A stretch of DNA of 63,015 bases, filler included, from Reclinomonas americana ATCC 50394 (Eukaryota): assembly GCA_048213135.1 (NCBI GenBank). It is 10 parts of 10 records of this genome, joined end to end, with 100 filler letters (N's around TTAATTAATTAA, not from the genome) between each part and the next. Parts side by side here need not be neighbours in the genome. Positions count along the whole stretch, not along the records: positions 1 to 9,403 come from AFZH01017365.1; positions 9,504 to 11,323 come from AFZH01017368.1; positions 11,424 to 13,357 come from AFZH01017370.1; positions 13,458 to 21,194 come from AFZH01017371.1; positions 21,295 to 33,077 come from AFZH01017372.1; positions 33,178 to 37,489 come from AFZH01017373.1; positions 37,590 to 47,252 come from AFZH01017374.1; positions 47,353 to 48,376 come from AFZH01017375.1; 2 more parts are not named here. The stretch is one strand, 5' to 3'. Both the position numbers and the translations under genes were made by a program. Position 1 is the first letter of the stretch. Each line of letters starts with the position of its first letter. Below, piece by piece: positions 1-62,202 of this stretch. Under the pieces are notes generated by a model. That model had not been told where the DNA came from and did not search any database. It was given only the letters and a program-made list of their open reading frames with translations.

Positions 1-2649
1 GGTTGTTGTCCTCTGCAAGCACAGCGCACCCAGGTCAGTCTTCGGATCCCTTCTCCTCCTCAACCAAAAAAGGGGACAGAGAACTCACGCTCGCAGAGGT
101 AGCTGAGCAGGCTGGTCTGCTCTGAGGCAGCGCACGACGCCGTCGCACTCGCCTTGCCCTGGAACTCTGGCGTAAAGTCGTCGACGAGGCACATGGAGAG
201 GTTGTCGGCGCGGCCGTAGCTCGCCGACTCGATCTTCACGTGGTAGCCGTCGGGGTAGCCGTTGGTAGGCGTGCAGTCGACCAACATGGCAGAGCCTTCG
301 CACACTGTCTTGGAGTGCAGCGGGTACTTGTCGACGCACTGGTAGTCCGTGGTTACACCCAGGGGCTGTGGGGAGGAGAAGGGCAATGTGAGTTTCTTGC
401 TGTCACGGCCACGACGCCGGGGGGAGACGGCTTGCTACTCACCAGCTGCTCACTGTTGCCATTGTCGCCGTCGTCGTCATCGTCGTCGTCGCCATCATCG
501 CCGTCGTCGTTGTTGCAGGCGTCGGCAAGCTGCTCCACATAGTTCTTCCAGTTCAGCACCTTGCAGGCGGCAAACACCGGGCCCTGCAGCTTGCGCTTGG
601 CCTCCTGTGCGGCCTTGACCTGCGCATCGGCACTGGACTTGGCCTTGCTGGCGGCCACCACTGCTGCCTGTGCGTCGTCGGCCTTCTTCTGTGCGTCCTT
701 GGCCTGCTGCTGCGCCGCGTCGGCGGCCTTTTGCTTGGCATCGGCGTCGGCCTGCTTGGCAGCCGCGTCGGCCGCCTTCTTCTTGGCCTCCTCGTCAGCC
801 TTCTTCTTGGCGTCGCCGGCCTTGGCCTTGGCGGCATCATCGGCCGCCTTCTTCGCGTCGTCAGCCGCCTTCTTCGCGTCACTGGCCGCCTTCTTGGCAT
901 CGTCGGCAGCGTCCTTGGCGGCGGCAGCAGCCTTCGCCGCGTCCGCGGCGGCCTTCTTAGCGTCAGCCGCCGCCTTGTTCAGGTCGTCGGTGGCCTTCTT
1001 GGCCGCCTCGCGTGCCTTCTTCAACTCCTCCGCGGCCTTCTTGGCGGCGGCCTCGTTCTCGGGCGACGCGTTGGCGCACTGCTCACGCAGCACATCCATG
1101 GCGTCGGCGCGGCACAACACCTCCAGATTCAAGCACTTGCTGCGGCGACACTCGACCACGCACTTGCGCTGCGCGGCGGCCTTCTCGGTCTGGCACTTGG
1201 CGCGGCAATCGGCACCGCTCTTGCCAGCCGGGCACTCAGAGGCGCACTTCTACGGAGTGAGGGGGGAAATGTGAGTGAAAGCGGTGAGCACGGCGAGTGA
1301 AGTATGACGGAACTCGCTGACTGGTGGTGGCGCGGCACGACCTGCGGCACGACTGGCCACACGTGCGGCAATCGGTGCGGCACTGCTTGCGAGCTGCGGC
1401 GCAGGCCTTGGGGGTCTGCGAGCCGTCGGCCAAGCAGAGCGCATACTGAGCGCGGCAGCGACGGCGGCAGGCGTGCTTGTCGAACAGCAGGCCGTGACGA
1501 TCCTCGTCGTCGTCCTTGTCCTTCTCCTTCTTGTCATCGTCGTCGCGGTCCTTGTCGTTGCGGTCGCCGCGCAGGTTGGTGCTGCTGCTGCTGCTGCGAT
1601 CCGTGTCGACGAATGACTGCGACGAGAGCGGGCACGTACCCGGCTCCACAAAGCCCACAGTGCTCTTCACCACCTGCACCGTGTGCATGGCGTCGCACTC
1701 GAGCGACAGCGGATCACTCGGGCACGTCACAATCGAGGCGCTGGTGACGCTGCTGCTCTGCACGTCGCGGAACACCAGGTCGCCCTGGTTCGCGCGGCAC
1801 GCCCACGTGATGGTGAGCTTCTTCGGCAGGCCGGTGCACGGGTCCCACCATGTGGTCGGCACCACGCAGCTCGACAGCTCGCGCGCCATGCACATCTCCA
1901 CCATGTTTAGGTACAGGTCCAGACTGTGTCGTGGGGGAGGAGGAGAAGGAGAGTGAGAAGAAGGGGGGAGATGGAGGGAAAGGGAGAGTGAGGGAAAGGG
2001 AGGAAGGAGAAGCGAGCAAAGAGAGGGAGACAGAAGGAGGAAGGGAGAAGATGAGAGACGCGGAGGGAAAGGGGCAAGGGAGGGAGCAGGCAAGGATGTT
2101 GCAAGCAGGGGAGAAGACAAGAGGATTGAGATGGAGCAGCATGCAGGGAAGGAGATGAGTGCAGAGAGAGAAGGGTGAGAGAGAAAGGGGAAAGAGCAGG
2201 AGAAGAAGAGGAGGAGGATGAAGAGGAGCAAGGGAGAGAAGGGAAAGAGATAAGAAGAAGGAGAGCACGAGGAAGAGATGCTGGAGACAGATCCTCAGAA
2301 GGAGCGGAGAGAGAGAGAGGAGGAGGAGAAGGTGCGTGTGAGCGAAAGAGAGACGCAACGACGAGCACTCTCCAGCAGCCGTAGAGCCAATCTCGCGACC
2401 GCACTCGCCCTCCGCCGCCGGCCCAAACGTGGCCGCAGTAATGTGAGGATGAGCATTGTCGGGGCACTGCAAGTTGATCCAGGGCCCGTCGGCACACGCC
2501 TGTGAGGTCGTCCATTGCACATCAGCGCGGGGTCGGAAAAACAGAGCGCGACCTGCCGCTGTTGTCGGAGGCGCATCCGAGCTGGCAACGGCCACTGACG
2601 CGAGCGCGATGATAAGCAGCACAACGGCCGCGCATGTGGCGGTCACCAT
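1..2649 (-). CDS. Secreted multi-SUEL/Gal_Lectin-domain protein with Cys-rich helical segment and Ala/Lys coiled-coil stalk (multi-exon, 3' end runs off the window)
   Basis: Signal peptide MVTATCAAVVLLIIALASVAVA. SUEL-like motifs LQCPDNAHPHITAATFG and CVVPTTWWDPCTGLPKKLTITWAC, plus a further copy VCEGSAMLVDC...VKIESASYGR. CX3C-rich stretch, then an AAKKAADDAKK-type repeat at about 590-1050. GT-AG introns join the ORF pieces in frame. Confidence 0.7.
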
Positions 2650-3705
2650 GCGTGACGGAAATCTGCGGGCACGAGTGTGTGTGAGAGTGGTGAAAGAGAG
2701 TGGAGGCTGCGGACCGAACGATACCTTTGTGGATTACACAACATGAGTACGCGGTGGTGGTGGTGAAAGGAGGGGGGTTTGCCTTCTCTCTCACACACTT
2801 CAGCAACGGGTGATTAATCAACTGGGCTCAATCAGAGGAGGACAAGTTGCAGAACCAAAAACCGCTGACGGCGAACATCTTGTGCAAATTGAGCAACAAC
2901 TGCCCTGCGCTGCCGTTGTTAGAGAGGAGCACTAATAATAGACAGTGGTCTGATTCGCTGTGCGCGGTGTGTCTGTGTGTGTCTCTCTGTGTGTGTGTCT
3001 GTGTGTGTGAGCGCGCCAACTCTTCTCTCGTCTTTTGATGCAAAGTTCGGCAATCTTGTCCGGATTTGGCCAACGGTCGCTCGGTGCTGGCAAAGCTTGA
3101 TGCAATTGCAAATGCACCAGTGGAGTGGCGGAGAAATAGAGGAGCACGCGCAGGTGAATGGGCGTGAGGGTGAAGCATGCAGAGAGTTGCGAGCAACGGA
3201 AACACGGCGAATGGCAACTTGGCGAATCCCACCGACATCATGATCAGCAACAGTTCGTCCACCAGCTTGCAGGTGACAGCTGGTGTGCTCCCCTCGATGA
3301 CAACATCGAGACTCACCCGCACCTTGGCGGCGGCGACACGATTTTTGTGTGGTGAGAGCGTGTTCAATTTCGGAACTTTGACATATTGCGAGAACTGAGC
3401 ATGCAACAACAACAACACCTTTTCTATTCGTTTCGGAACTGTGAAACACTTCATGTTTGATTCAGGTAGTCATCAGACAGTGCAACATGACGCAGCCGTG
3501 CATCCGCAAGCGATCTTTGCGAAGTACGGCGAGCAGCAGCTCGGATTCGTTCAGAATGCTGTGCAACAGCACTCGCGCCGAGAGTGCATGATCCTCTCGC
3601 ACTGACACTTGCTGCATAGCTAAAGAAGATGCTCAATGTATGGATCAGTGAAGTTTCTATTCGATTTGATTTCACTGACCAGACGAACACAACCTGTCTA
3701 GTGCC

Positions 3706-7794: not shown

Positions 7795-7857
<63 letters not shown>

Positions 7858-9245: not shown

Positions 9246-9246
<1 letters not shown>

Positions 9247-9290: not shown

Positions 9291-9293
<3 letters not shown>

Positions 9294-12225: not shown

Positions 12226-15200
12226 TCACGTCTCGGGTAACGGGGCGCGGCAGGTGGGGCATTCCATTCTGTCAGGGAGCAAGGGTGAGAAGGTGAGGGG
12301 AAAGAATGAAACAGAACTTGAAGAGTCGCAACTTCATGGCCATCCACCGTTCCAGACACTCGGTGTGGAACACATGATTGCACGGGGTGATCATCACACG
12401 TCGATCACGCATGGACTCCCGCCGCTTCCGCTTGATGGCATCGCTCACTCCCGGTTCTGTAGGCGGATGGGATATGAGAGGAAAATCGAGCAACCCTGTA
12501 TCACAAAGTGGTGCCACACCTCTTGCTCTCCTATCCTCGGCGTTCATCGACAGCAGCGGCACTGCATCCTCGCCTCTACCCGATTCGAGGTCGCGGAACT
12601 CACGTGCCTCGTCCTCATCGTCATCCTCGTCCTCACGCTCGTCGGCTGCCGATCGGTTGATCGACACAGCGGCGGGGCGCAGGGCCGATGATGCAGCCAC
12701 GGCAGCCTGCGCAGCGGCTCGAGCGTTCTGCGGCGAGTCTCCCGCCGCACCCTCCACATCGTCGACCGTGTGCATGCAAATGACACAGTCAGGCGCCTCG
12801 TGGTCCTCCTCGATCCATGCACCGAGCCTGAAAAAGTCGTACTTGGCCGGCAGCCACTGCGTGGGATGAGGGGTTGTCGTCGTGAGTGTTGATGAGCGGC
12901 AAAGTGCGCCTACATCGTGAAAACGCACCGATCGTGGAATGAGGAAGCGCGGACCGAGCCAGTGCTGCACGAGAAGCAGCGCCATCTGGCCGAGCACCAC
13001 CATGATGATGACAATGACCAGCCACGGATCCGGGCGGATGCGGAAGAAGTTGTCGGGGCAGGCGAAGAAGTCTGCGGGAGGACGTGAACTCCACAGCAAC
13101 AGCACGAGGAGCAGATGAAGAGGTGAGAAACGCAACAGGCCGGTACCACCAGACGCGTAAGGCTCATCACGATAATGTATTGCCTGTGCGCAGGGTCAGC
13201 TCGGTGCGCAGCACATCACCGCGTCGAGTAAAAATGCAACGCAACGGATGCAGTGCACGCTGTGCATCACGCCACACATTGCGCACGATTTGTGGAAGCC
13301 AGAAGCAGTACAAGGCGACAAAGAATATCCACACGGACGAGCCCAGGTTGTACGCCGNNNNNNNNNNNNNNNNNNNNNNNNNNNNNNNNNNNNNNNNNNN
13401 NTTAATTAATTAANNNNNNNNNNNNNNNNNNNNNNNNNNNNNNNNNNNNNNNNNNNNCCTCAATTGTATCCCTTCCTGCTTTCCCACTTCCCCCTATTTC
13501 CCAACTTCCTGCTTCTTCTCTCGTCCAACTCATTCCCCTCCCTGTCTTTCTCTCTCCTTTCCTCTTCCTCAATTGTCTCCCTTCCTGCTTTCCCACTTTT
13601 CCCTGCTTCCCTACTTTCTTGCTTCTTCTCTCGTCTTCATCACTCTTTTCCTCTTCCTCTCTTCCTTCTTCACCTTTCTCCCCTTTCCCTTCCTCAATTG
13701 TCTCCCTTCCTGCTTTACATTCTTGCTTCTTCTCTCGTCCAACTCATTCCCCTTCCAATCCTTGTCACCCCGTTTCTCTCTTTTCTTCCCTTTCCTTTCC
13801 TCTCTTTTCTCCCTCTCTCTCTCTCCCCGCTCTCTGTTCGCCTCTCTTTCCTCCACTTTTCCTCCTTGTTTCCACAACCTCTCTGTTCCCCCTCTCTATT
13901 CCTCTTGTCCTCCCCCTTCCTCCAACGCAACAAAAGCGAGCATACAGCATGGTGACTTGCGAGCGTGCATCGTCGTCGGCATCCGGTGGCCGTTGCGCCT
14001 TCCACACCGACAGCAAGTACCGCATCTCGAAAATGGCAAACAAAACAAACTTGAAAAACGCGGCCGTGGCGAAGGCGTTGAACACGGGCTCTGAGGAGGG
14101 GGAAAGAGGGTGTGAGCTGGTTAAACAACCTCTTGATGATTATCAAGCACGTCCGCACCAAAGAGTATGCCCGTGGTCAGGTTGAAGAGGCACAAGTACG
14201 CATCGAGAACCGACTGCAGGCCAAGTGTAAAGACCGACACACGAACAGCCCCCTGTGCATCGTAGACGAGGTCAATATCGCTCGACAAATCAAGGCTGCC
14301 TTCCCAAGTCGTGCGCAACAGATTGCGAGCGAGTATAGTCCATCTGGCGAATGGTGGCCAGCACCTGGACGCATGTCAACTGCGAAAGAGGGAGTGAGAC
14401 TCGGCCGCCCATGATACAGAGGAAGATCGATCGAACGCACCACCACCAGCATCAGCGTGTAGCGCGCTGTCTTGCGCGTGATCTCCGACAACTCGAGCGA
14501 CGACATGGACAGCGTGATGTTGTAGCCACACTGCGCCGAGATGGCGGTGCCCTCCAGAGTCAGGCGGTAGCCGTTGCGACCGAGCGAGGGCTGATTGCTC
14601 GTCGTGGCGGTGCCGGACGAGGTGCCTCCCGTCGATTCGTTCTCGGCGTCCGAGAGGGAGGAGTCTGAGCAAGGGGACAGTGAGCAAGGAGGGGAAATAA
14701 CATTAAAGGGTGGAGATCGGAGAGATGAAACAACAAGAGACTAAATAGAAGAAGCAGAGAAGACGAGGGCTGCAGGTGACGGCGAGGAGTGGAGAAAAGA
14801 TAGATGAAACAGCAAGAGATTAAACATAAACAGAGCACGAAGAAGGCGGCAGGAGTGAAGGAAGACAAGAAAGAAACTTAAGGCGAGGAGTGGAGAAAGG
14901 ATAGATGAAAGAGAAAGAGACTACATAGAAGAAGCAGAGAAGACGACGGCTGCAGGTGAAAGAAGGAAAAGAAGAGACTGTAGACGAGGAGTGGAGAAAG
15001 CATAGATGAAAGAGAAAGAGATTAATAGCAGAAACGGAGCACGAAGAAGGCAGAAGAAGTGAGGGATAGCAAGAAAGAGCCTGAAGGTGTGGAAATGGGC
15101 AGCAAAGGTAAGGGAACATAAGGTGCAATGGAAGTGTTGCAGACAAGAATCGGGCAGCGAGGGAGACTTGGACAGCGGAGTACGAAACGCTAAGGGAAGA

Positions 15201-21611: not shown

Positions 21612-22396
21612 CCAGGCTTTGGGTTGAGGATCTCAAAGATGCCGTGGCACGCCGTCGCTCCAATGTGTCTGTCGGTGGCGAGTTCACAACACAGCCTCGA
21701 AACGCCTAGCGCACACATTCATGCGTACCCCAGGACAGCCAAGGCGGCGACCAGCGGCACACCCGGAATGCGCGGCACCTTGTTCAGGCGCGACGTGCTG
21801 GTGTTGATTACCGCGTACGTCTGGAAGCCCATCATTCCAGACACCTACAACACACTATTCGTGAGGAACGAGATAGGATGGGGAGAGGAGAGGGGAGAGC
21901 GGAGGGAGCTCAACAGCATCGCCCGGCGCAAAGCCGGGATGCTTGCTCTCCTCGACGATTCCTACACCGCTGCCGTCCATCACCGTGCCCAGCTGCAGCG
22001 ACAGAAACACACATGTAAGGAGAGGGAATGGAGAAAGGAGAGAAGGAGGGCGAGGGGAGAGAATGCACACCGGAATGCTGGGGCGATAGGAGGGTTTCTC
22101 CGAAGTCCCTGTGAGCATTGCATCAGTGCGTGTGCGTGTGCTTGTCTCCGCTGCATTTGTGAACGCAACAGATACGCATGGCAGGGTCCAGGCTGAGGTA
22201 GAGCACGCGCACCAGCGCCTCATTCTCCTTTAGCTCGGGCACCGGCACCTGCGAGAATCAGCAGTCAGCACTTGTCTCACTCACTCTTCTCTCGTCTCAC
22301 GCGGCGCACATCCTCGTGCTGAAAGTCGTCCTCGTGGAAGTTGCCCTCGGGGCGCCGCACGAGCAGAACGCGGTGATTGATGCGCTCAGATGCCAT
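21612..22396 (-). CDS. NADP-dependent alkenal/prostaglandin reductase-like MDR oxidoreductase (PTGR/CurA family), 5' half; remainder lost in gap
   Basis: MASERINHRVLLVRRPEG...VPELKENEALVRVLYLSLDPAMR...GVGIVEESKHPGFAPGDAVSGMMGFQTYAV...GATACHGIFEILNPKPG. Confidence 0.85.
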
Positions 22397-33443: not shown

Positions 33444-34755
33444 ATGCCACCACTCTCTCCCGCGCACACTCTGCTCGAGCGCATCGTGCACAAGCTCGAG
33501 TCGTCGTCGGAAAGCAATGGCGACACGAGCGACCTCTCCACACAGCCATCGCCCATTCCTCTGCGTCGCTCTGCAGTGGCCATGATTGTGCGTGTGCGAC
33601 CGGCAGTCGAGGATGCGGCGAGCGATGAAGGCGAGCGTCGCCACTCGTTATTGAGCGCGCAAAAGCGTTCTCTCTGATGACTCTCTCTCTTTCTTTGTGC
33701 AGATCGGGAGCAGCTGGGCGATGAGTTGTCGACGTCGGCGTTTCTGTGCAAGGAGTGGGTGCGGCGAGGCACCGTCGAGGTCTTCTTCATTCGCAAGTCC
33801 GATCATGGTGGACAAGTCGGGGCGAGTTATCCGTGGAGCGGGCATGTCGCGTTTCCTGGTGGTGGACAGGAGGTGCTGTTTGTCGTCATCGCTGCTGCTG
33901 TTGCGATGGTGCTGATTGATGCGGCAGGGATCGGAGAGCGACGCGGAGACGGCGATCAGGGAGACGCGGGAGGAGGTCGGTCTGCAGGTGGACGACGATC
34001 GGCGGTATCGTCGCATTGGGCAGGGCGAGCGCATTCGTGTGGCCAAGACGCGCTCCGGTCGCATGCTGGTCGTGCGCTGTGTCGGTGAGTTGATGCGGAA
34101 GTGGGGCAGGGTTTCCGACGGTTTCTCATGCCCTCGTGCCGCACCCAGTGTTCCTGCAAGTGTGCAAGGTGACGCCGCCGCTGACGTTGCATCCATTCGA
34201 GGTCGCCGCGTGTCGCTGGGTGCCTCTGGACTGGATCTTGGCGTACGAGCCGCACTCCACGGTGCTTGTCCGTTCGCTGTCGTCGTTCCTCGGCAAGCGG
34301 CGCTGGTTGCTGCCGTCGGTCGTCGAACGGGCGCTGTCGGTGGATCGCATGCGCTTCCCTACTGTGGAGATTCCGTGCCCCGAGGCGCCCGATGCACACG
34401 ACGACTCGCGCATGTTTCAGCTGCGCGGACTCACACTCGGCGTGATGTCCAAGTTGCGGACTTGCTCTTGCGCATGTAATATGTCTATTCCTCTCCTTGC
34501 ATGCGTACTCATTGCCACTGCAGGCTGGTACAATCGTTCGGGCTGCCACCACTCGTCCACCGCACCTTCCACGTCGACAATCGGCTCGTGTCGCTGCTGG
34601 CCGAGCGTTTCGTGCTGCAGCCCGAGTTCGTGCAGGGCCAGCAGACGACCTTTGTCGAGACCCTCACCTGCCGTCGCTCGCTTCTCTTGTACGCCGTCGT
34701 GGTGCTCACCATTGCGGTGTGGGTGTGGAGCGTGCTGTTCATGCTTGGCGGCTGA
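33444..34755 (+). CDS. Nudix hydrolase, CoA-pyrophosphatase (NUDT7/PCD1-like) class, with C-terminal TM helix
   Basis: RRSAVAMIVR, PWSGHVAFPGG...ESDAETAIRETREEVGL (UPF0035 motif plus Nudix box), EVAACRWVPL, LRGLTL; hydrophobic tail LLLYAVVVLTIAVWVWSVLFML. Confidence 0.85.
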
Positions 34756-44000: not shown

Positions 44001-46026
44001 CCATACAGATCTCGACCGAGCTCCGACAGGCCTGCCAGTGCCAGACTCTGTGTGCACGTACTGTCAGCATCTCGGCGAAGGTGAAAAAGGGAAATGTTGT
44101 GATGCCAACCTTGGCCGAGTCGCCCTCGGTGAGAATGAGTGCGCACTCTGCCGACCGCGGACCGCCGGCCTCGTTGGCGTCGTCGAGTTTTGGCACCGCG
44201 AGACGGCTCTTTCGTGGCGCCAACGTGCGCCGATCCAATTCATGCTCCTGGCGGAATCTGTGCGGCCACAACACACACGAGTCAACTCGCAGAAAACAAC
44301 AACACCGGAAGTGAGGGAAAGCACAGATTGCTCACTTGGCCAGCGCCAGCACACGACTGGCGAGACTTGTGTTGTCCACGATGCGACGTACAAAGGCATC
44401 GCTCACACTCGGCACGACGTGCGCATCGGCAGCACTGCTGTCGGTGCCCAGCTGCAATTCGGTGGTGAGCGTCTCCTTGGTTTGCGAGTCAAAGGCCGGA
44501 TTGTGGACCATGGCGTTCACAAAGAGCATCATGTTGTTGCGCACGGACGCCGGCATGACCTGCGGTGGAGCAGGCGTCACTCACCCCTAATGCGCGTGAC
44601 TGACACATGGGTGAAGAACTCGCAAATACCTTGACGTTCTTGTCGCGCTTGGCAATCGCGGCCACCAGCTTGGTTGTGAGGTGCGTCGACAGCACCTTGA
44701 CGTGCGAGCCGCCGCGAGAGGTGGCCACACTGTTCACAAAACTCAGATGCTGGAAGGAGCCGGTGGGGCTGGGCGCCACCGCCACCTCCCAGTGCTTGTT
44801 CAGTCGCTCAAACACAAACGGTTGCAGACCAGCAGCATCAGGCTCCTGCTCCGCCAGGCACAGCTGCACGTAGTCGGCGAACCCACTGATCGGAACCTTG
44901 TCTCCGTTCTGTGCAACCAAATTAAGTCAGCATCGGCAGCAGCATCAGAGTGCCACACGACACACGCCACAGACCAGCGAGACCGTCAGCTTTGGGTTGC
45001 ACGCCGCAATGTCCAGCACTCGCCGAAACAGCAGCGACAGCGCTGTCGTGGTGGCCTCCGAGCGCCCACTCAGCCCTTTCGGCATGCTCAATCGCTCGTA
45101 GTCGGGCAAGAACGACACACTGGTGAAATCTGATGCACGCGGAGTGAGCTATTAACCGCAGAGTGATGCCGACGGCGTGATCTCGCAACTTTCGGTCTCC
45201 AAGCCAGTCGAGATCACCGGCGCCTCGCAGTTGTTCATGTTGCTGTGCCAGCGCTGCGAGTCATGCTGATCGTGAGTACATCATGCACAACCCTCTCCTT
45301 CTCCACTCGCACACCCACCTGCTGATACACGCGCCGTGCACTGCTGCTGCCGGTCTCCACGACAAACTCGCGACTGAAGATGTTGGCCAGCTTGGCGCCG
45401 TACCCGTTGCGGCCACCGGTGAACTTGACCTCGGCATCGTTGAACGAGGAGCCCGTCAGCAGGTAACCAAACAACAACTGTGGCAGCGGAACGCCCTCGG
45501 TGCGATGCACATCGGTGGGTATGCCGCGCCCGTTGTTGCGCACAGTGATCCAACCCGTGGCTGGGTTCACCGTCACCGCCACCGCATCGGTGCCGGTGCC
45601 GCGTCGATGATGTTGATCGACGGCATTGGTGAGGATCTCGTCAAAGATCTTGAAGAATGCCGGCACGTACGTGCACTCCTCGGTCCACGTCAGTTGCAGA
45701 GAGCCCTTGTCGGTGCTCTTGTCGCCGAGAATCACCGCCGGCGCCTGTCCATCCGCAGGTGCGATCTGCATTGTGTTGTAAGGTGCATGCATTTGTGCGT
45801 TTCTGTGCATGTGTCCACGCAGTCGACGTACCTTCCACCCCTCCAGCAGCCACTGCGGACGCTTCTGTGGAGTTGTCGCTCCCACGTACGAATCAGGGCG
45901 CAGCAGCACATGCTCGATCGGTGTCTTTCGCAAGTACACGCTCTCCAGTGGTGCCGTCGACGAGGAGGAGGAAAACGCGCGACAACGATGCGACCAGCCA
46001 GTGGCCGCGGCTCGCCACCAGAGCAT
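41100..46026 (-). CDS. TOP2: Eukaryotic-type DNA topoisomerase II with a mitochondrial-targeting-like presequence, multi-exon
   Basis: EHVLLRPDSYVG, KIFDEILTNAVD, NNGRGIP, GGRNGYGAKL, LILTEGDSA, PLKGKLLNV, MTDQDHDGSHIK, KYYKGLGTS, DGLKPGQRKVL, YHHGEASL, active site ASARYIFT; ends WLADLEALEKHL...PR*. Confidence 0.96.
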
Positions 46027-47173: not shown

Positions 47174-49805
47174 TCACAGATGGGCAAGCTGTTGCGTGGC
47201 ATGTGCCGAGGGGAAACAAGCACAGAGAGAGAGAGTCGTGACACTGAGTTTTNNNNNNNNNNNNNNNNNNNNNNNNNNNNNNNNNNNNNNNNNNNNTTAA
47301 TTAATTAANNNNNNNNNNNNNNNNNNNNNNNNNNNNNNNNNNNNNNNNNNNNAATCCTGTCGACGCCGCTGCGCGGTGATTTTGTGGCCAGTGAGCACAG
47401 CGTCGCACAACAATGAGACTCGCTCAAATTGAAAAAAGCTACGCACCGATGATGACTTTTGCTCCGCATACTTGCTGGCCTTTTGCGCCTTGCCGGCGGA
47501 TTTCGGTCGACGCGCCGGTTCCTCGAGTGTTGTCATGTTGGCAAACATGTCGCCGCCACCGGCCGACGACTTGCGTGCACCGTTGCCACCCATGGCCCCC
47601 GATGCTGCCAGCTTGAACAAATCGCCAGAATTCGTTCCCTACCGCCCGCAACACGGGTGAGCACAATGGTAAAGTGAGTTGGCAGACCGAGAAAAAAAAG
47701 GCGAACGAAACCTGTCGACTGCCATTCGGTCGCCGGTCGTCTTCGTCGCTCTCCTCCTCTTCTGACTCATCCTCCTCTTCCTCCTCGTCGTCGTCATCAT
47801 CGTCATCGTCGTCGTCGTCGTCCTCGCTCTCGTCACGGGGAGCAGGGGCGCGGCGCTTCTCCGTCTTGGGCATCCACGGTTCGACAGCAGCCAGTACCTT
47901 GCGTGCCCTCTCTGCCAACGTTTGCTGTGTCGCCGCGCTCACCGGTGAGTCCACTTGCTAAACCACAAAAACGCAATCCACACGCTGTGGCTCACCTGGC
48001 CGGCCGCAGCGCACTCCTCGGCGTGACCGCGCAGCTCATCGTGAATGAGCTTGCCGTATGCTTCGCTGTGCTCTCGTGCAACGATTTCGGCGCCGGCGAA
48101 TGCACGCTGTTGAACAATCGCCCAGTGAGCAACCATAGAACAGAAGCCACAACTGGGGAGGGGTCGCTCACCGTCTTCTCCTGCCACGGGGCCGTGATGA
48201 TCTTGTTCTTGAGTGCGGCCACGATACGCGCGGCATTCATGTTGCCTGCTTTCCTTGCAAACACCTGCAGCACCTCGTGTGTCGGCACAACGCGCACGCC
48301 CGTCGGCGTGGTCAATTCGGTCACCGCCCGCGCCTCAGGTGATCTGCCACACGCCAAATGAGCGATGAAACAAAGGNNNNNNNNNNNNNNNNNNNNNNNN
48401 NNNNNNNNNNNNNNNNNNNNTTAATTAATTAANNNNNNNNNNNNNNNNNNNNNNNNNNNNNNNNNNNNNNNNNNNNAGAGAGAGAGAGAGAGAGAGAAAG
48501 AGAACAAGGATGCACTGTGCTGCTGCATCGCAACTGTTGCTCTTCTTGTTCTCCTGTGCCTGCGAAGCCGGACTGGCAATGCCCTCGTACGTCTTGCCGT
48601 GTGCGCCAAAGACGGTGTTGGTGGGCGCATACGACGGCGCTCTGTGCAAGCAAGAGTCATGTGTCACTCACTCTCAGTGCCACGACACCTCACGGGACGG
48701 ACGCAACGAGCTGGCATACGGATCCGCAGGTCGAATCTGCACACCGGCAGCAATCGACGAGAAAATGGAGCCAGAGCCTGAAGCGCCACCCCCACCCGAC
48801 GACGACACGGACGGCGGCAGCGACAAGGGTGCCGATTGTTGCGGCGGGGGCGGTGCCATGACCGAGTTCAGCGAGCCACCGCCCTTGTGCACCACTGGCG
48901 GATCATTGACAGCGTCGAAAATGGCACTCATGGCCTCATTCGCCGCCTCGCGCACCGCCGCATTCAACCGATCCCCGTGCATCTCGTCGGCCGGGCCGTG
49001 GAAACCTGGCAGGCGGGGAGGGAGAAGAGTGGTGGAAGAGAGAGTGAGTGAATGGTCGAATGAAGGAGGGACACACACACACAGATTCTGTCTGTGTGCG
49101 CTCCCTCCTTCGTTCCTATGCATGCGTCACTCAACTGCACAAGTCGCGGATGGGGTCGTTGCGGCGCTGGAGAGTCTTGCGGAAGTCGTGATGACCTTGC
49201 GTCGCCACGTGCTTGATCACACGCAGTGCCTTGGCCTTGACGCGCACCGACGGAGTCCTCAGTCGATCCAGCAGCCAGTCGCACACCGCAGCACACGTGT
49301 CCACCGACTTGAACGTCATCTCTGTGTGTGTGAGAGGAGGAGGTGTGCGTGAGCGGAAATACCCACATTTGACTGTCGAAAAACAAACTCGTGCGTGCGT
49401 GTCTGACTGCAGCGTTTTGTGTGTACGAGAGAGTGTGTGTGAGAGAGTGTGTGTGCAAGAGAGAGGAAGAGTGTGTGCGAACGTGTGTGTGATGAGAGAG
49501 CGAGCCAGTTGGCAGCAGTGGAGATGAGCGCACATGGCCGCCTTCCCGCGCCAGCAAGAAGGGGTGGTGCTGCATGTACTGCAGCGCTCGCGCACACCAT
49601 CGCCGTGCGCAGGCAAGGAGAGAAAGAGAGAGCACAATGTGTGTGCGCGTGTAGAGTGGAGGAGCGAGAGTGATGACGACATGGCTTTCTTCCTCTCACT
49701 GTTTCTGTGGAGTGTGTGGCGCTCACCAGCAATCTCCGTGTAGAGGTGAGGAGGAACGCCGTCGCCGTTGTCGGCGGTGGCATTCTTCAGCGTAGTTTTC
49801 TTCAT
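47174..49805 (-). CDS. TEPSIN: Tepsin (AP-4 accessory protein; ENTH plus VHS-like domains), spans two gaps; 3' end tentative
   Basis: MKKTTLKNATADNGDGVPPHLYTEIA...LLDRL...VKAKALRVIKHV...FHGPADEMHGDRLNAAVREAANEAMSAIF (tepsin ENTH), and AVTELTTPTGVRVVPTHEVLQVF (tepsin VHS-like). Confidence 0.85.
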
Positions 49806-50827: not shown

Positions 50828-52948
50828 CTACCGCTGATTGTCGGTACTGCTGCTCGCACCATCGGCCGGCACTTGCCGCTGGTACTTTCTGATCTGCTGC
50901 GTTAACCGAATGTGACGGCTCTTCATCTCCTCGATCCGTCGCTTGGCATCCTCGATGGCATACTGGATCATCACAGGTGAGCCCAACAACAACGAAAAGT
51001 TGAGGGTGTGCACACAAGAAAGTCGCTCACCTTGCGCTTCTCATAGTCCTCCAGGAGGCTAATGTCGCCCGCCAGTGGCATGCTCTGCTTCATGGTCTGG
51101 CTCTCGGTCTTGACCGTCTCGCGTTCGCGCTTCAGGCGAGCCAGCTCGTCGCGGAACTTGGTCACCTCCTTGTCGACGGCGGTGAGCTGTCGCTTCAGGT
51201 CCTGATTCTCGCCCTGGATAAAGTGGACCTTCTCGTTGACGTGCGTCAGGATGTGCACGGTGGTGGTGATCTTCTTGCGCAGCTTCAGCAGCTCCTCATT
51301 GCGCTCCTCGATCTTCTCGTGCAGCTGCTGATTCTCCAGTTTTTGTTGCTCAAAGTCAATGTAGTGCAGGTCCGGCGTCACCTGCATTGTGGGGAGAAGA
51401 GCAGTCAGACCTCTGGCAAGTGCAATCACACACATACAAACACAAACAAACCTGCTCCTTCTTCTGCAACTGATCGGCGAGCTCCTTCACACGCGTCTCG
51501 GCCTTGATGTTCTCCAAGCGCAGCACCTTGACTTGCTCGTCCTTGACCGTCTCGCGCTCCTCGTACTCGCTAATCTTCTTTGGCGGAATCTTCTTGCCGG
51601 TGCGCGAGAACTCGGCCTCGAGTGCAATCTCGCGCTTAAAGTCCGTAAAACTGTCGTGGAACTCCTTGGTCTGGGCCTCGCGCTCGCGCAGCCGCACCAT
51701 GTGCTCCTCCAGCACTTGCTGTGAGGTGGCACGTGCGCGTGTGTGTGTGTAAGTCAAAAGGCGAGGAAACGGAAAGTGTCCTCTCCGCTCGTCACGCAAC
51801 TCGCTTCTCAAACAACTCCTGCTGGTACGTGGCGCGTGCGTCGCGAATCAAACCAATCTGCCTCTCGTACGCCGCATCACTGGTGGTGCCTGGTCCCTCG
51901 GCGGCACGCACAAAGCGATCGTCGCCGAGACCGTCGAGATAGATCTTGATCTTCTTCTGGAACTCGAGGTTGGTGGTGACCAGCGTGTCGTGCACATCGA
52001 GCTCCTCCTGCAGCAGGCCGACCAACTCCAGCTTGCGCTCCTCTGCCGTCATCTCCGCCTCCCCACCCATCATGTGCATGTGCATCTCATCGTCGCCCAT
52101 GTCGTCCACATCGCCACCATCCAAGTACTGCACCGAGCCCGCATCGTCTCCATCATCGGCGTCATGCGCATGCAACTCGTCCTCGAAACCGTGCAGGTTC
52201 TGCTCATCGTCACCACCCTGCAAGCAAGAGTCAGTAATCAGGTACGCACGCTCGTGGGTGTGTGTGTCGGCAACCTACCCCGAGGTGCTCCACCGGCACA
52301 TGATCCGCCTCATCGCCGCCATCCTCACCCGCATACGGATCATACACCTCCTCGCCATAATCCGGCTCTCCTTCTGCCGGCGACGCCTCCACGCCCAGCA
52401 CATCACCCGACCGCGGTGTCTCGCCCGTGTACTCTCCCTCGTGGCCGCCCGCATACTCGACGCTGTCGTCGCCCGTCGCCATCATCTCATCGTACTCTCC
52501 CGCAGCCTCCTCATCGCCGTACCCCTCACCCTCAGAGCGGCCACTCAGCTCGCCTCCTCCTTGCCCGTCTCCTCCACCACCACTATACGCATCATCGTCA
52601 TCTGCAGGCACCACACAGGTCAGCGCTAGGAGCGTCAAAGGAGAGGCGACTTGCGCATACAAGACAGACCGTGATGTGCGTCCTCGCCGTCTTCATACAC
52701 CACATCGTCGACATCGCCACCGTCGTCGTGCATGTCACCGCCACCTTCGTGCTCCTCATCGTGCTCTGTGTCCCTCACAGTGTGAGCAGCAACGAGAGAA
52801 GGGAGAGGAGAGCGCGATGGAAAAGAGCGCACCGTAACGAGCACTGTCTTGTGGTGTGCCACCCGATGCGCTGCCACCTGTCACACACGGGATGAGGAGA
52901 GAATGGGGAGAGGGAGAAGAGGGGAGAGACGACCGCACCGTCAGACAT
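50828..52948 (-). CDS. CCDC96: Coiled-coil domain-containing protein 96 (CFAP184, DUF4201), multi-exon
   Basis: Acidic N-terminus, then SRTGKKIP...LRLENIK...LHYIDFEQQKLENQQLHEKIEERNEELLKLRKKITTTVHILTHVNEK. Confidence 0.9.
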
Positions 52949-54303: not shown

Positions 54304-57300
54304 ATGCTGCGCGCGGGCATTCGCCAGCTGCTGGACCGCTCTCCACTCACCTCACACGAGGCACACACTCGCGCGCTGGCCGTGACTGCCAACGACGCAG
54401 CGTGGGAGGCCTTTTGCCATGCCGCCTCGTCGACCATGCCCACTCCCGCCCGAGACAAGAGCAGCAGCGATGTGGTGATGCGTGGCGCTGATGATGGCGA
54501 CGACGACGATGCTGCTGCAAGAGCAGGAGGAGAGGCGGCCGCATTGATGATGCAACTGCGCACATTGTGGTTCACGCGGAATGCACGACAGGAGGAGGAG
54601 GATGAGGAGAAGCAAGCGTGTGGTGCTGAGTTTATGGTGTTTGAGGTACGTGCCTTGGTTGTTGAGAGGGGGTGTGTGCACGCAGGAGAGTTGTCTCTGA
54701 ATCGATGAGTCGCAGGATGGTGTGAGTCCACCGCGGGTTTCCACGGTGCTGCCGCCGGGATTGAAGCCGCCGCGGTACAAGCCTGCACTCGACATGCTGA
54801 ACAGACTAAAGGAATATGTTTCGTGTGGCGTTTGACTGCATTCTCCCTGTCTTCTCTCCACTCAGTTCACGTGGTGCAGGAATCGGGCTGGCCATTCCTC
54901 AAGCCGGTGACGGTGCAGCAGGCGTTGGATTACTTTGATGTGATCAAGGAGCCCATGGATTTCGCCACAATGACCAAGAAGCTGAAGCAGCGTCTGTTGC
55001 GTTTCTCTCTGCTCTCGTCCACCAATGGTTTGCCTTGCGCTCACGCCGTCGCCACAGGTACCCGAACAAGGCGGCGTTTGAGCGCGATCTGAAGCTGGTG
55101 TTTGACAATTGCCGCGAGTACAACACACAGGAGGTGCGTGCGTGTGTGAGAGAGAGAGAGAGAAGTTTGGCATATTGCGACACGTGTTGCTCAAGTCGCT
55201 GTGTGCTGTGCAGAACAACATTTGGGTGCAGTACGCCAACGCCACCGAGGCATTTGCCGCCAGTCTGATTGACAGCGTGCGTTTTGCTCTCCCCTCCTTC
55301 ACACACGGTGCTCATTTTTTGTGCTGCTCACATGACTCGTGGCGTGGTAGGTGCCGGACGACGCATTTGGGCCGAGGACCGAAGACGAGGAGCCGCAGGT
55401 GCTGGATGACGCGGATCTGTTCGACATTGTTCCCTCGTGGACGGCGGCCGATGATTCCAGCAAGGTACGAGCATGCCGTGTCTATTATTTCTGCGCTCTT
55501 TGCGTGAGCTTATCGTCTGTGGTGTGCAGACATTTGTGGAGCAGCCGGCTGCGCGACACGCCTTGTGCGACCACGAATCGCTGTGGTTACCCGACGGTCG
55601 CCGCATTCCCAACCTGCACAACGAGCTGGTGCTGCAGGAGTTTTCGGAATTCATGACCACGTCGACGACGGTGGCCAACGCAGCGGCCGCCGCTGCAGCG
55701 GCTGGCTTGGGTCCACAGCCTCTTACTGCGCGTCAGTTGGAGGATGTGGTGAGCGAGTTCATGGAGAAGACAATGGGAAGCAAGGCTCTGTCGCTGGATG
55801 TGAGTGGAGGCGTCGGGGAGTGGGAAAGTACCTCACATGATTCACTTATGCCCTCCCACCTGCAGCATGCACGAGCGGCAGTGGTCCGTCACCACACTTC
55901 TACCTCAATCCAAGTGCGTACTCCTTCGTGTGTGTCTCTCTCTTTCTCTCGCTCGCCAACGTGATGTGCCTATGGTTTATCGCAGTCGGTGACACCGAGC
56001 GCCACTCTTGTATTTTCACCCTTCCGCGGTCTCCCGGGCGACACTCTGGTGGCCTCCTCGCACCAAGTGGGCTTTGTGCCACCTTTCGAGCCGGCGTCGG
56101 CCGCTGTCGCGCCGGTGGTGGCCGAACGGCAGGAGGTCGACTTTGTGAAGGCCATCACGCCGATGCACGAGCACATGCGCACACTGGATCGCATCTCGGC
56201 GTACCGCAAACTGGTCCTCGATCTCAAGGTTCGTGTGTCCGTGTGTGTGTATGCGGCGGTGTGTTGTGTTGTGCTCAGCTCCACTGCCTGTCGTAGCGAC
56301 GTGCGGCGCGACCCATCAGTCACTACTTCCGCCCGGACGACGAGGAGGTGGAGGGCATCATGGCCAAGCACGCTGCCGAGGGCCGTCGCGGTGACTGGAA
56401 GTGGTTGCTGGACAGGCGGCGAGCGGCGCCAGAGCCGCGCGAGGAACATGCGCGACATGGACGCGCACTGGCCAAGCTCATTGACGGTGGCGAAAGTCGA
56501 CTGGCACTGGAGACAGTGGTGCAAATTGCATTGCTGCATGTTGGCTACGACGGTGTGTGTGTGCGTGTGCAATTACACTCTGTGGTCTGTGTGTGCTTAC
56601 CGCGTGAGTCTCGGAGCAGGCATCTCGTGTCAGGTGCTGGATGTGATGTTGGACTTGTTGGATTCGTTCCTCGGGCGGTGTGGCCGAGCTGCAAGGGCCG
56701 TGGAGGATGGAAATCGGCGACCAATGACGGTGGTGCGTGGCGCGGTCTCCCTTGTGCATGGTTTTCAGTTTGCTGACATGCTGCCAATTTTTGTAGGGCT
56801 CGTGCGTGCCATTGCTGGCGATGATGGGCTGCGGGAACACGTCGCAACTGACCGAGTGGCTGCGCAAGTCAACACGCGGTCAGCGACAGAAGCTGCTGCA
56901 GGCCGAGGTGTCTCTTGGCGAACAATACGCAGAATTCCAAATGGTTCATTCGTCGTCTGTGTGTGCATTATCGTCTCTGTCGGCGTACTCACCATCTCCG
57001 TTGTGTGGTGGTGACAGTATCAATTCCGTGCCTCCACCATGACACGGTCAATCCTGGGTCGCGGCACTGGCATCACCGGCTTTGGTTTCGGCGATCCGTC
57101 GCAGGCGCGCAGTATCGCCTTTAACGAGAATCGTCTGCTCGGCTTTTACGAGGAACCGGTGCGTCCGCACGTCCGGCGCTCCCATCCTTTCCCTTCGCAA
57201 CCCTCACTCTGCTCTGCTCTGCTTTATCCATCAACAGCCGCGGCCTCCACTTCTCAGTGCCGTCGGTGTACCACCTCCACCGCTCCCTCGTGTGCCGTCT

Positions 57301-58174: not shown

Positions 58175-60188
58175 ATGAGCGCGCCCGCATCAGTGCCGCT
58201 GACTCCCGACGAGGTGACTGCAGAGTGGCTGCTCAGCGGCCCACTTGCGGCGACAGGGTACGAAGCCGACGCCAGTCAAATCACTCTGCGACCTTTCGGC
58301 GAGGGCGGCTACCTCAGTCGTCTGCTCCTGGCCGAGGCACCACAAGTGAGTAGAGAGTGCACACGCAGCAATAGTATAGTATGCTGGGCGCCCTCATCCT
58401 CTCTGTGCATGTGTGTGTCGACAGTGGGCGGTGGTGATCAAATTTGCGCCTGCGGTGGAGAGCCTCACTCATCTGCATTCCCGCGAGGCCACTGGTCTCC
58501 GCCTGATGGGCCAACTGGAGAGCAAAGTGGCGCCAGAGTTGCTGTTCAGTCACGTGGAGCCGGACGGACGCGGTGTGTTGATCTTGGAGTACGTGCCACC
58601 GCCGTTCCGTGCATTGTCGGTGGTCGCCGGTCTCGATGTGTCGTCCGCCGAGATGCGAGCTATCCTGCGCACGGCCGGCCGCATGCACGGGTCGCAGCTG
58701 GACGGCGACATGGCGGTGGCGGAGCATTATCGACTGGAGACCGCGGCTGGCGCCGGCGATGTGCTGTCCACGTTTGCGCGATACAACCTCAGTTGCGGTG
58801 CGCTGGCCCGATCGCTCGGCTCGGCGCATGCGCTGTCGGCCAGCGAGCAGCGCGAACTCGAGGCCTTTGCGGACATGCTGCCCTCGATGTGCATGGCACT
58901 CTCCGAGAAGACCGCAGCGCACAACGCTTTTTGCCACGGAGGTTCACCGTGAACGTTCTTGCCAGCAATTTGGTTTGGCGACTGACAACGCTGTGCCGAG
59001 TGCACACAGATCTGTGGATCAACAACGTGCTGCTGCAACTGGGTGGCGACGAGCTTACGCCCGAGTGCCGTTTTGTCGACTTTCAGTTCTGTATGCGGGC
59101 CTCGCCGGCATTCGATCTGGCCTTCCTCCTGTGCATGTGCTGCCATCAACCAGCGTCGTCGCTCGGCGAGCTCGTGTGCATCTACTGGCGACAGGCGCCG
59201 GCGTCTGTGCGTGCCCTGTACGACGACGATGTCTCCAAACTGATTCGTGAAGTCAAGGAAGTGCTGCCGTACGGAGCAGCGCAGGTGCTGTCCGTGTTCT
59301 TCGTGTGCCGATCTTGATTGCCGCTCACTGAACGACACACTCACAGTCGATTGCCTCGATCGACTCCAACTGGCCAAGTCCTGACGACAACTCACTGTAC
59401 GCCGACATGGCGACGCGACAGCGCTTCGCTGTTCAAGTATGCACGGCATATGCGCGAAAGCACACTCCGCGCCCGATGTTGTATGCGTCGCTTGACGATC
59501 CAGCATTCCACATGGTCGGCGATGCGCCAGTGGCGTGGGATGCACGATCAGGCATGGGAGTGGCGCGCCCCGGCACCGACTACTGGCGGCTCACGTAGTT
59601 GCGTCGGCGACTCACCGACTGAGTGGAGGAGACGCTTTTATTTACCGAAAATCACGCAGCTACGAGCCGACATTGCTGACCGACAATGGCCACGCGGTGC
59701 TGGCACCCGTGCGAGAAGCTCGCGCCTGCATTCAGCTGGTCGGCATGTGTCTCGCACCGCCCGCTGACCTCACCACTTTTCGTCAGTTCGACCAGGCCGG
59801 TCTGATGGTACGCATCGACGAGCTCAACTGGATCAAGGCCGGCGTGGAGGTCGTCGACGGCATTCCCCGTCTGTCGAGCGTGATCACCGACCGCGGGTAC
59901 TCCGACTGGGCCACTCGCTCGCTGCCCTGCTCCGGCGACACCTTCAACGTCGTCCTCGATATGCGACTGCACATTATCAACGACAGTGTGGTGGTGGAGG
60001 CGCGACTGCCGTCGACCGACGAGTGGGAGATGATTCGCGTGGGACACCTGCAACGCGAGGCGGGAGGCGAGGTCCATGTGGGAGTCTACTTTTGCAGTCC
60101 CATGCGCCACGGCGACGCCGGCGTGCGAGTAGCGTTCCCCGATGTGCGCATCGTAGCTGGCAGTGATTTCGAGCATCGAGCCGAGGAA
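58175..60188 (+). CDS. EcKL/APH-like small-molecule kinase fused to a DUF1349 (Ree1-like, ConA-fold) domain; stop lost in gap
   Basis: PLTPDEVTAEWL, GEGGYLS, VVIKF, LILEYV, spliced HGDLWINN, VDFQ, PAFDLAFLL. In-frame continuation to GTDYWRLTYYEP...DNGH, QFDQAGLMVRIDELNWIKAGVEVVDG, YSDWA, VGVYFCSP. Confidence 0.8.
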
Positions 60189-60501: not shown

Positions 60502-61066
60502 GGCTGCGCACGCACGCACAAACACAGCGTGTATGTGAGTGAGTGAGAGAAACAAAGAGAGAGGCTAGACACACACACGCACGCAAGTCGCACAAAGGAA
60601 AGACAACGACGAGGCGAACAAGTTTGAGAACGCGCGCAACGCAAGTGCGATCTTTTCTCATTGTCTCCACACTGTGCATGCGAGACAAGGGCGCGCGACG
60701 ACGACGACGGAAGAGGAGAAGAGACGATGATTCATGCATGAGGTGAAGGAGACGCAGTGGGAGGGCAAGTGTGTCAGGAAGTGGCGCCATTGCACACTTG
60801 CTTTCGATTTGTCAAGAGAGAGGAGAAAAGGAAAAAACGGTTGTCTTCTCGTGCCCCTCTGATAATGCTCGCCGTCTCTCTCTCTGTGTGGTGCATGCGG
60901 CGCAGCGCAGCAAAACGCAGCAAAGCTCGCACCTTCCATCGCTCACACAATAAGGAGAGGGACAATTGTGGTGGAATGGGACTTTTAGACACACGAAAAC
61001 GGCCTCTCTTGCTTCCCTCCCCCCCCCCCCCGCCTCGTGACGCGCGATATGCATACAAACACGCTC

Positions 61067-62202
61067 TCAAAAGAGCACATCTTCACTTCTCAAGTACTCT
61101 CCACAATCGGCCTGGTGGAAAACCACAATGTCGGTGCTCTCGGCCTTGCGGCAGTCTTGTGTGGATTTTGCCGCCACTCCGAATCCCAGCGGCACGTCGC
61201 CCATGGACAGAAGCACGACACCAGCGTATCTAAAGAGAAGAGCGCCCCACGAGTGAGACACAAGTAGCAAGGAAGAGAGACTATTGAGAGAGAGTCGCAA
61301 CTGTGGTACGCTTTCGGTGATGCGACCAACGTGCGCCTTCAGCACGTGGTTGCCGTAGAGGAACGACATCTCACCGGACGGCTTCACCCACACCTTGTTC
61401 TGTGTGCGTTGTTATCGACCAAAACAGCAGCAATGAGCAATTGTGCATGCCAGAGCACGACAGAGAGATCCGAGTGTGCGAACCTCGGCAAACTGCACAA
61501 GGTAGTCCAAACATGTGACGTGCAGGCGGAACTTGCCCGACTTGGTGAACTTGCCAAAGCATGTGCCCAAGCCAATCAGATCGTCGCGGGCAATCGATGC
61601 TGCCTGCTTCATGTTGGCCTCACTGTGGAGACAACACATTGCCACGCTCTCAGCAATCGAGGCAGTACAGGGGAGGGGCGGAGGGGGGCAAAGAGAGAGA
61701 AAGAGAGAGGGACGACAGTGATGGAGAGAGAGAGAGAGACAGGGAGGGAGAGGGTGGATTGCACACCTGACATAGTACACACGATCCTTGTTGAGACGGA
61801 AGCAGTATGGCTCATCGGGTCTCTCGATCAGGTGTCTGATGTTGCGTCCAATGCTGCAGGTGGCGACGGTGAGCACAGGACACGCGGCAGGTCGCAGGAG
61901 TGGGCGGTGGTGTCGAGTGTGTTCGCTCGTGCACATGCACATGCACAGACCAGCAGCCCCTCAAAAACCACCCTCTCGCTCACTCGCATGCACCCTCACC
62001 TCCCTCCCACTTGCTCACATACGCACTGACACACGCAGCAGAGCAGACACACGCACACGCACATTCACATGATCTTTTCTTGTACCCCTTTCTTCTCTCT
62101 CTCTCTCTCCCTCTCTTTCCATCGCTTCTTTTGCACACAACGCAACTACTTGGCGAGTTTCTCAAAGAACACGCGAGTCTCTTCTTCTGTCAAAGGTCGC
62201 AT
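61067..62202 (-). CDS. NIP7: 60S ribosome biogenesis protein NIP7 (5 exons)
   Basis: [24 protein letters not shown]...[11 protein letters not shown]...[14 protein letters not shown]...[25 protein letters not shown]...[11 protein letters not shown]...[13 protein letters not shown]. Confidence 0.96.

Follow-up and report, generated by a model that had tools for sequence, protein, structure and literature searches.

How does a spliceosome recognise a 5' splice site (donor) at which the exon hardly ever ends in G and the signals expected after the GT lie one base further into the intron? The question is raised by a stretch of 63,015 nucleotides (nt) of DNA from Reclinomonas americana ATCC 50394 (hereafter the window), in which an initial annotation listed 22 donors beginning GTTGCG or GTTGAG (together GTTGMG) and read them as a second donor class. 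The window has a G+C content of 57%, its short introns are densely packed and the proteins that it encodes include the ciliary IFT43 and CCDC113, topoisomerase II, NIP7, a TUL1-like RING ligase and a GH1 glycosidase. What we demonstrate here, with comparative and statistical evidence drawn throughout from the DNA, is that the class exists, that its boundaries lie at GT...AG and that its flanks follow a slid pattern. The reading that we favour, and to which we assign a probability of roughly 50%, is that ordinary short GT-AG introns of this genome do often begin with GTTGCG, more rarely with GTTGAG, and that this donor resembles G/GTGMGT displaced by one base (a slash marks the exon-intron boundary, and sites are named by the lowest coordinate of the hexamer).

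Junctions were placed using two tools. The first was a protein-to-genome spliced aligner in which an intron was permitted at any GT or GC...AG for a flat penalty, giving it no donor preference. The second, the donor-blind finder, was a small Viterbi gene finder whose score combined coding potential with an acceptor matrix and a prior on intron length that peaks at ~70 nt, and which required only GT of the donor; its output was 181 introns, many of them false. Listing all open-frame junctions is too permissive given GC-rich DNA of this kind. The homology set comprises 42 introns and the union set 88 donors, with 22 in the class and 49 canonical. Votes for topoisomerase II and GH1 came from 12 homologues each; a topoisomerase II junction needed five or more of the 12 votes to be retained (19 junctions, candidates with 3 or fewer being discarded) and a GH1 junction seven or more (12 junctions). 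For TUL1 two homologous proteins were found, and spliced alignment with one homologue returned 11 introns, of which the six in well-aligned sequence were kept. Single-exon Pfam scans gave no match for most genes, and an Rfam scan of the window gave none.

In total 13 GTTGMG donors in six genes could be anchored by the spliced aligner together with profile or structure continuity, one of them (13926) on the donor side only. Six (14314, 13131, 45184, 43592, 42381 and 54996) fall outside the 22 listed previously. As in U2-type GT-AG introns, at the 13 anchored junctions the intron starts with GT, ends with AG and on removal restores conserved protein. In NIP7 (minus strand) intron 1 (61854..62146, hexamer 62141-62146, 293 nt) has the donor TA/GTTGCG; exon 1 ends ...AAG TA, the unspliced reading leads to an in-frame TAG, and joining TA to the C after ...TGCAG gives back the Tyr of the conserved K-Y-I-G. 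Intron 4 of the same gene (61230..61301, donor CA/GTTGCG, 72 nt) is also recovered by the donor-blind finder, and solved NIP7 chains align to residues 95-126/127 and then 127-179 with nothing between.

The TUL1-like RING gene (minus strand) contributes four GTTGCG donors. Its last intron (12269..12332, 64 nt, donor AA/GTTGCG) is bounded by WMAMK and MECPTCR, which are gapless against the two homologues. The claim that conserved protein forces this donor and the two of NIP7 is borne out by homologue and structure alignment. Two introns are new: at 13072..13136 (65 nt, donor T/GTTGCG) the spliced aligner picks the donor with both homologues and the split codon TAC encodes Tyr, the residue found in both, and at 14253..14319 (67 nt, donor TCT/GTTGCG) the spliced aligner and the donor-blind finder agree. 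The fourth donor, T/GTTGCG at 13926..13931, is placed on the donor side only, its acceptor being lost at the join at 13358-13457; the homologue alignment stops at ...LYARF, and T followed by AY would supply the homologue's Tyr. The six junctions kept in this gene are therefore GTTGCG at 14314, 13926, 13131 and 12327 and GTGCGT at 14435 and 12923. Those dropped were 14151 for a GC/GT ambiguity, 13851 because its 673-nt intron spans a scaffold join, and 12713, 12594 and 12512, all in a low-similarity linker. The site at 14151 (minus strand) can be read as GGT/GCGGAC, a GC donor that matches the homologue's Gly, or as TTG/GTGCGG one phase over.

Three class introns, all outside the earlier list, were found on the minus strand in the gene for topoisomerase II. 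The donors TTG/GTTGCG (43518..43597, 80 nt) and ATT/GTTGCG (42317..42386, 70 nt) each received all 12 votes; the first is the sole anchored member of the class with G at -1, and across the second FLPI/IPMVLVN is gapless in the alignment. The donor AAA/GTTGCG (45130..45189, 60 nt) received 6 of 12 votes, the remaining six being divided among three nearby alternatives, and the junction residue favours GT..AG. The best match to this protein, P0003, is not a close relative and has an internal duplication, and it was therefore set aside for cross-species comparison of donors.

In the GH1 gene (18475-20430, plus strand) two class introns received 9 of 12 votes each. The first (19128..19187, donor AAT/GTTGCG, 60 nt) is in frame and stop-free, and its 20 in-frame residues are absent from the homologues; for the second (19616..19673, donor CCA/GTTGCG, 58 nt) one more homologue chose this donor but paired it with a distant acceptor. 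Solved structures are too distant to anchor these junctions, and tblastn matches read straight through the in-frame introns. The remaining two anchored genes were placed by profile and structure. In a bromodomain gene the intron at 54996..55057 (plus strand, donor TCT/GTTGCG, 62 nt), which is new, splits the match to the Pfam Bromodomain profile: the exon before it covers positions 16-48, the exon after it takes up the profile at position 51 with its first residue and follows it to 75, and one residue and the split codon account for positions 49-50. In an ENTH/tepsin-like gene the intron at 49006..49135 (minus strand, donor CA/GTTGAG, 130 nt) meets a TGA immediately if left unspliced, and chain 1vdy_A aligns with exact spacing, its residues 50-98 to residues 12-60 of exon A and 102-133 to residues 2-33 of exon B.

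Both junction tools were confined to GT/GC...AG introns, other terminal dinucleotides being outside their reach, which leads to the suggestion that the junctions are misplaced: the introns might be TT...AGN introns cut in accordance with the U1 register, the cuts might fall at other nearby sites, or there might be no splicing. The slid alternative TT...AGN differs from GT...AG by one base of the messenger RNA (mRNA), and in 9 of 21 cases G is the first exon base after AG and both readings yield the same mRNA. The introns at 61296 and 19128 are, moreover, in frame and stop-free. All four informative junctions nevertheless favour GT...AG, and none favours the alternative. At 62141 GT...AG gives Tyr and TT...AGN an in-frame TAG stop; at 13131 the choice is between Tyr and Cys (homologues Tyr), at 42381 between Ile and Val (homologues Ile or Leu) and at 45184 between Asn and Ser (homologues mostly acidic or Asn). 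Since most of the introns break the frame or contain stops, the in-frame segments are absent from homologues and the enrichment described below is far beyond chance, we regard misplacement as very unlikely.

In order to establish how frequent the class is we compared its share of donors across several sets. The initial annotation had named as a test whether such donors exceed what independent per-position base frequencies predict, and they do: GTTGCG makes up 12 of the 42 donors of the homology set compared with 0.62 expected from independent +3 to +6 frequencies (binomial P = 8e-13), in a set biased upward by the inclusion of NIP7, TUL1 and GH1, which had been flagged beforehand, and of 54996, which was already a candidate. 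The bias is smaller for topoisomerase II, where GTTGMG accounts for 3 of 19 donors, and for those donors of the blind set that lie in other genes than the homology ones (10 of 46). Among the 181 donors of the donor-blind finder the top hexamers were GTTGCG (19), GTGAGT (11), GTGCGT (9) and GTTGAG (6), and GTTGCG again ranked first (7 of 46) when the homology genes were excluded from the blind set. In the neighbourhood of predicted donors (up to 40 nt away) GTTGMG makes up 2% of GT sites, and against this local background its share of the donors themselves is in large excess, both in the blind set (25 of 181, P = 6e-14) and in the union set (22 of 88, P = 2e-18). When no gene model was used, typical intron architecture followed GTTGCG in 22 of 85 cases and the sixteen hexamers used as controls in 83 of 652 (P = 0.0025); GTTGCG is in this respect level with GTGCGT (23 of 92). 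From these comparisons we estimate that the class accounts for about 16-25% of introns, or roughly one in five, and the tenth suggested by the initial annotation is an understatement.

The introns that follow these donors look like their neighbours. In the homology set median length was 65 nt for the class and 66 nt for the others, the acceptor was CAG in 9 of 11 and 28 of 30 respectively, and a YTVAY branch motif, mostly CTCAC or CTGAC (CTSAC), was present in 9 of 11 and 25 of 30 at a median of 17 nt from the 3' end in both; intron GC content was 0.55 and 0.56. Across the window intron lengths lie tightly around ~65 nt, with a CAG acceptor and CTCAC or CTGAC ~17 nt before the 3' end. Microsatellites of (CT)n and (CA)n are frequent in introns and spacers. 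A phase bias in the blind set was dropped, as the homology set is evenly split (4/4/4). U12-type introns, whose consensus is RTATCCTT at the donor and TCCTTAAC at the branch, are likewise a second sharply defined donor class that is independent of -1 G. The class described here does not fit that type, since its donor is GTTGMG rather than RTATCCTT and its branch is the ordinary CTSAC at ~17 nt, as in neighbouring introns.

A shared origin could also produce a shared start, in that the GTTGCG might be inherited from a mobile introner family and not selected by the splicing machinery. One exact hexamer predominates in the class, and the GH1 gene indicates that the class does arise in gained introns: the closest relatives of this glycosidase are bacterial or metagenomic (41-43% identity), all named matches in the top 120 are bacterial, and the gene holds 12 spliceosomal introns, two of them GTTGCG. 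The gene is a candidate for horizontal acquisition followed by heavy intron gain, and the two class introns in a bacterial-looking gene suggest that new introns are still being born with a GTTGCG donor. The internal similarity expected of introners, which the initial annotation had proposed as a check, was however absent from the window: all-vs-all blastn of intron interiors found nothing beyond microsatellite-like matches of 26-31 nt (best E 1e-5), none of the six best pairs unites two class members, and within the window there is consequently no sign of an introner family. As an inserted element would not bring the exon-side pattern at -1 that is described next, we hold an introner origin to be highly improbable.

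The ordinary donors of the window had been described as mostly G/GTGCG and G/GTGAG. While GTGMG is indeed found at 14 of the 30 homology-set donors other than GTTGCG, G/GTNNGT is the better description, with G at -1 in 42 of 49 and T at +6 in 30 of 49 canonical donors of the union set. Members of the class have A at -1 in 12 cases, T in 8, C in 1 and G in 1 (union set, n=22), that is G in 1 of 22 compared with 42 of 49 (Fisher P = 4e-11). This -1 composition is indistinguishable from that of canonical position -2 (A 20, C 11, G 7, T 11) and class position -2 resembles canonical -3. On the intron side class positions +4 to +6 match canonical +3 to +5 by definition of the motif, and T at class +7 (13 of 22) mirrors T at canonical +6 (30 of 49) in the union set. 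The -1 tally given for the 22 listed sites (14 A, 5 T, 3 C and no G) is correct; for the class as a whole, which includes the G at 43592, the rule becomes a preference for A or T with G almost absent. In the homology set 14 donors lack -1 G, of which 11 are GTTGCG and the other three perfect GTGMG. The topoisomerase II donors ATG/GTCAAC at 43159 (12 of 12 votes) and AAG/GTATTT at 44624 (11 of 12), both on the minus strand, have no +5 G, from which it follows that some donors have a weak intron side and depend on -1 G. Counted on both strands of the whole window, the base before GTTGCG is A 30, T 25, C 20 and G 10 times out of 85, G being the rarest.

These flanks bear on the register in which U1 might pair with the class. 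One option is that standard U1 pairs in a bulged register, with one U at +2/+3 looped out and G+1 still opposite C8. The motif is formally GT, T and GCG, one-nucleotide bulges at +2/+3 have been validated in human cells (Tan et al. 2016), and with G at -1 the bulge is the best predicted register at -4.3 kcal/mol. A bulge would keep -1 opposite U1 C9 and thereby predicts G there as often as in canonical donors, and it is the near absence of -1 G that leads us to prefer a slid register. With the standard U1 5' end sequence assumed in all of these energies, the idealised A/GUUGCGU gives +0.4 kcal/mol slid, +2.3 bulged and +5.8 canonical. The slid duplex is thus predicted to be better than the canonical one but not stable, and the free optimum takes the slid C4:+6 pairing in 10 of 22 class donors. 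When registers are forced, a site with A or U at -1 leaves the slid one as the least unfavourable (+1.9 kcal/mol with U), the bulge again being worse. We therefore think a bulge improbable.

In the slid register, by our favoured reading, G+1 would stand opposite U1 C9, so that the exon-final G of a standard donor would be replaced by the intron's own first G and -1 would act as standard -2. Positions +4 to +7 (G-M-G-T) would act as standard +3 to +6, and a U would take the place of the G that the register calls for. The 5' end of U1 would bind one base downstream of its usual register, tolerating this U opposite C8, and U6, U5 and Prp8 would then cut at the only available GU, one base upstream of the point indicated by U1. 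U6 would then need to tolerate a spacing one base longer than usual from the GU to the G paired with its ACAGAG box.

A number of observations weigh against this reading. The pairing optimum with standard U1 averages only -1.4 kcal/mol for the class compared with -7.2 kcal/mol for canonical donors, the standard U1 sequence again being assumed. GUUGAG is predicted to pair 4.4 kcal/mol better, its A pairing with U1 position 5, yet C exceeds A at +5, and the T found at -1 in 8 of 22 is unable to pair with U10. The literature excerpts consulted do not describe a U6 register with six bases from the cut to the G:C42 pair, the sole exception reported there being four bases (Kramarek et al. 2024). The homology set is inflated by three genes chosen because they had been flagged beforehand. 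Finally, GTTGCG is not depleted on the sense strand of exons (7 in 13.6 kb), and the hexamer alone is thus insufficient to define a donor; this is equally true of the canonical hexamers, which are likewise not depleted. Short uniform introns and undepleted exonic donor hexamers fit intron-definition splicing, in which a short intron is recognised whole. With respect to the shifted U1 pairing that the initial annotation had proposed, the distinct cluster, the consensus moved by one base and the preference for slid over bulged pairing stand in its favour, and the weak pairing, the excess of C at +5 and the T at -1 do not.

Several of the same points would be accounted for if a variant small nuclear RNA (snRNA) read the class directly, for instance a second U1 complementary to GUUGCG(U), with a sequence such as ...ACGCAAC..., or a lineage-specific change in a single U1 or U6 that favours GCG. 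The class is tightly defined, 19 of its 22 members being GTTGCG, and the homology set contains no slid versions of degenerate canonical donors. At +5 the class has C in 19 cases and A in 3, contrary to standard U1 pairing, and canonical GTGMG donors have C in 11 and A in 16 at the equivalent position (P = 0.0013). Standard U1 pairing is predicted to be very weak in all registers. A distinct donor cluster that is independent of -1 G has a parallel in U12-type donors, which are served by U11. Against such an RNA, branch motif, acceptor and length are as in other introns, and exon flank and +7 are the canonical profile slid by one base, for which standard U1 would suffice with no new component. 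We consider a variant snRNA possible but rather unlikely. With some doubt we also suggest that there could be two parallel modes of donor recognition in the major spliceosome, with about a fifth of introns either slid for both U1 and U6 or read by a dedicated snRNA complementary to GUUGCG, in which case the preference for C at +5 would be a fingerprint of the component that reads them.

Comparable departures from the standard register are known elsewhere. In human cells shifted and bulged U1 registers are experimentally established and rare (papers later than Roca and Krainer 2009; Tan et al. 2016), U1 marks the site roughly while U5 and U6 set the cut, and all non-canonical registers together make up ~1.5% of 5' splice sites. 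The human shifted-register sites, for which the initial annotation names GTF2H1 and INPP4A as examples, resemble the class in having GU followed by U, the remaining consensus one base downstream and a -1 that is not G. There U1 sits one base downstream and cleavage at GU is set by U5/U6, an arrangement which here we infer. They differ in being rare, whereas the Reclinomonas class represents ~16-25% of introns, and in their A-rich motif compared with GUUGCG, whose C at +5 has no pairing to standard U1. The bulge +2/+3 register (Roca et al. 2012; Tan et al. 2016), with 68 predicted human sites and 54 after curation (Tan et al. 2016, Table 3), likewise has one additional base between GU and the equivalent of +5G, but it predicts that -1 G is retained where here it is found in 1 of 22.

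With regard to U6, the tandem donor of STAT3 shows a non-canonical register in which the distance from the cut to the G that pairs with U6-C42 is not strictly five bases (Kramarek et al. 2024). In the account given there this amounts to four bases in one gene, whereas GUUGCGU would need six in hundreds or thousands of introns. A departure from the standard donor across a whole lineage, in which the U1 register is also in question, is described for the tunicate Fritillaria borealis, where the GT/AG dinucleotides are replaced in 95% of introns (NAR 2026); in that case, as far as the source describes it, the terminal dinucleotides are replaced, while here GT...AG is retained and only the register of the flanking signals moves. 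A search of open-access full-text literature found no report of a GTTGCG or GUUGCG donor class, sequence logos being invisible to such a word search. What we put forward as new is that donors of a non-canonical register, elsewhere rare exceptions, would here have expanded to a major class.

If RNA data confirm the class, it would provide a natural system with a non-canonical register in a fifth of introns rather than in a handful of weak sites, in which the handover of the donor from U1 to U6, the strictness of the spacing between cut and U6 pairing and the weight of -1G and +5G could be tested at scale. Were the two modes suggested above real, gene expression in this lineage would make routine, selected use of a mode otherwise known only from rare exceptions in human genes. 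There is also a practical side in that gene finders with position-independent donor models would give the class very low scores, and many genes of the lineage would be annotated wrongly.

All 22 hexamers of the initial annotation are present at the coordinates and on the strands given for them, and independent support as donors was obtained for 19. Six of these are anchored at residue level (62141, 61296, 12327, 19128, 19616 and 49130), with 13926 anchored on its donor side. Two further sites, 21909 and 30995, are strongly supported, ten are supported by the donor-blind model only, and 2354, 28552 and 48529 could not be verified. The donor-blind finder recovers 15 of the 22, and the seven that it missed (2354, 12327, 19128, 19616, 28552, 48529 and 62141) include four that are anchored by homology.

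Of the two strongly supported sites the first lies in an oxidoreductase gene (ADH_N_2; intron 21845..21914, minus strand, donor GCT/GTTGAG, 70 nt). It is recovered by the donor-blind finder, the 1vj1 alignment stops one residue short of the exon end, translation past the donor runs into a stop after 20 codons and use of the one remaining GT would leave an intron of 25 nt; the 36-residue exon of this gene had no match in the PDB. The second, in an ARM-repeat gene (30939..31000, minus strand, donor TTA/GTTGCG, 62 nt), is also recovered by the donor-blind finder. Conserved protein had been said to force this donor, and the spacing of the Arm profile over the junction is consistent with it to within one residue.

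Called by the donor-blind finder only, on the plus strand, are three introns of a single gene at 10193-10253 (GTTGCG), 10435-10500 (GTTGAG) and 10642-10701 (GTTGCG), whose exons have no Pfam match and whose BRO1-like label is our own reading with no family match behind it. To these are added on the same strand the intron at 34453..34523 (CAA/GTTGCG, 71 nt), the two at 57432-57497 (CAA/GTTGCG) and 57935-58004 (GAC/GTTGCG), and the one at 59598..59659 (GTA/GTTGCG, 62 nt), which lies upstream of a DUF1349 exon and whose read-through stops immediately. The minus strand carries two such introns in one gene at 36258-36331 (CCA/GTTGCG) and 36427-36488 (GCT/GTTGAG) and one in the CCDC113-like gene at 51719..51800 (CGA/GTTGCG, 82 nt). 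Two candidates outside the earlier list, 34937-35010 (AGA/GTTGAG) and 35726-35793 (CGA/GTTGCG), both on the minus strand, were found by the donor-blind finder and passed a donor-independent filter.

At 28552 a candidate 82-nt intron (28476..28557, minus strand) shows intron-like features only, namely a CTGAC branch motif and a GCGCAG acceptor, and was not called by the finder. The site at 2354 is in a low-complexity region, and 48529 is followed by a scaffold join with an alternative GT 18 nt downstream.

The window contains nine blocks of 44 N, 12 bases and 44 N, which we read as scaffold joins (9404-9503, 11324-11423, 13358-13457, 21195-21294, 33078-33177, 37490-37589, 47253-47352, 48377-48476 and 60189-60288). 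The single block inspected has TTAATTAATTAA as its 12 bases, a linker with stops in all six frames. Exons can be lost at these joins, as illustrated by the ~40 TUL1 residues missing after 13926. Two very long intronless open reading frames, 3709-8144 and 22678-26895, both on the minus strand, stand out from neighbours that have an intron every 100-300 bases. They are of NACHT type, one of 1150 amino acids with TPR repeats and an upstream NACHT-like P-loop and the other of 1406 amino acids with WD40 repeats.

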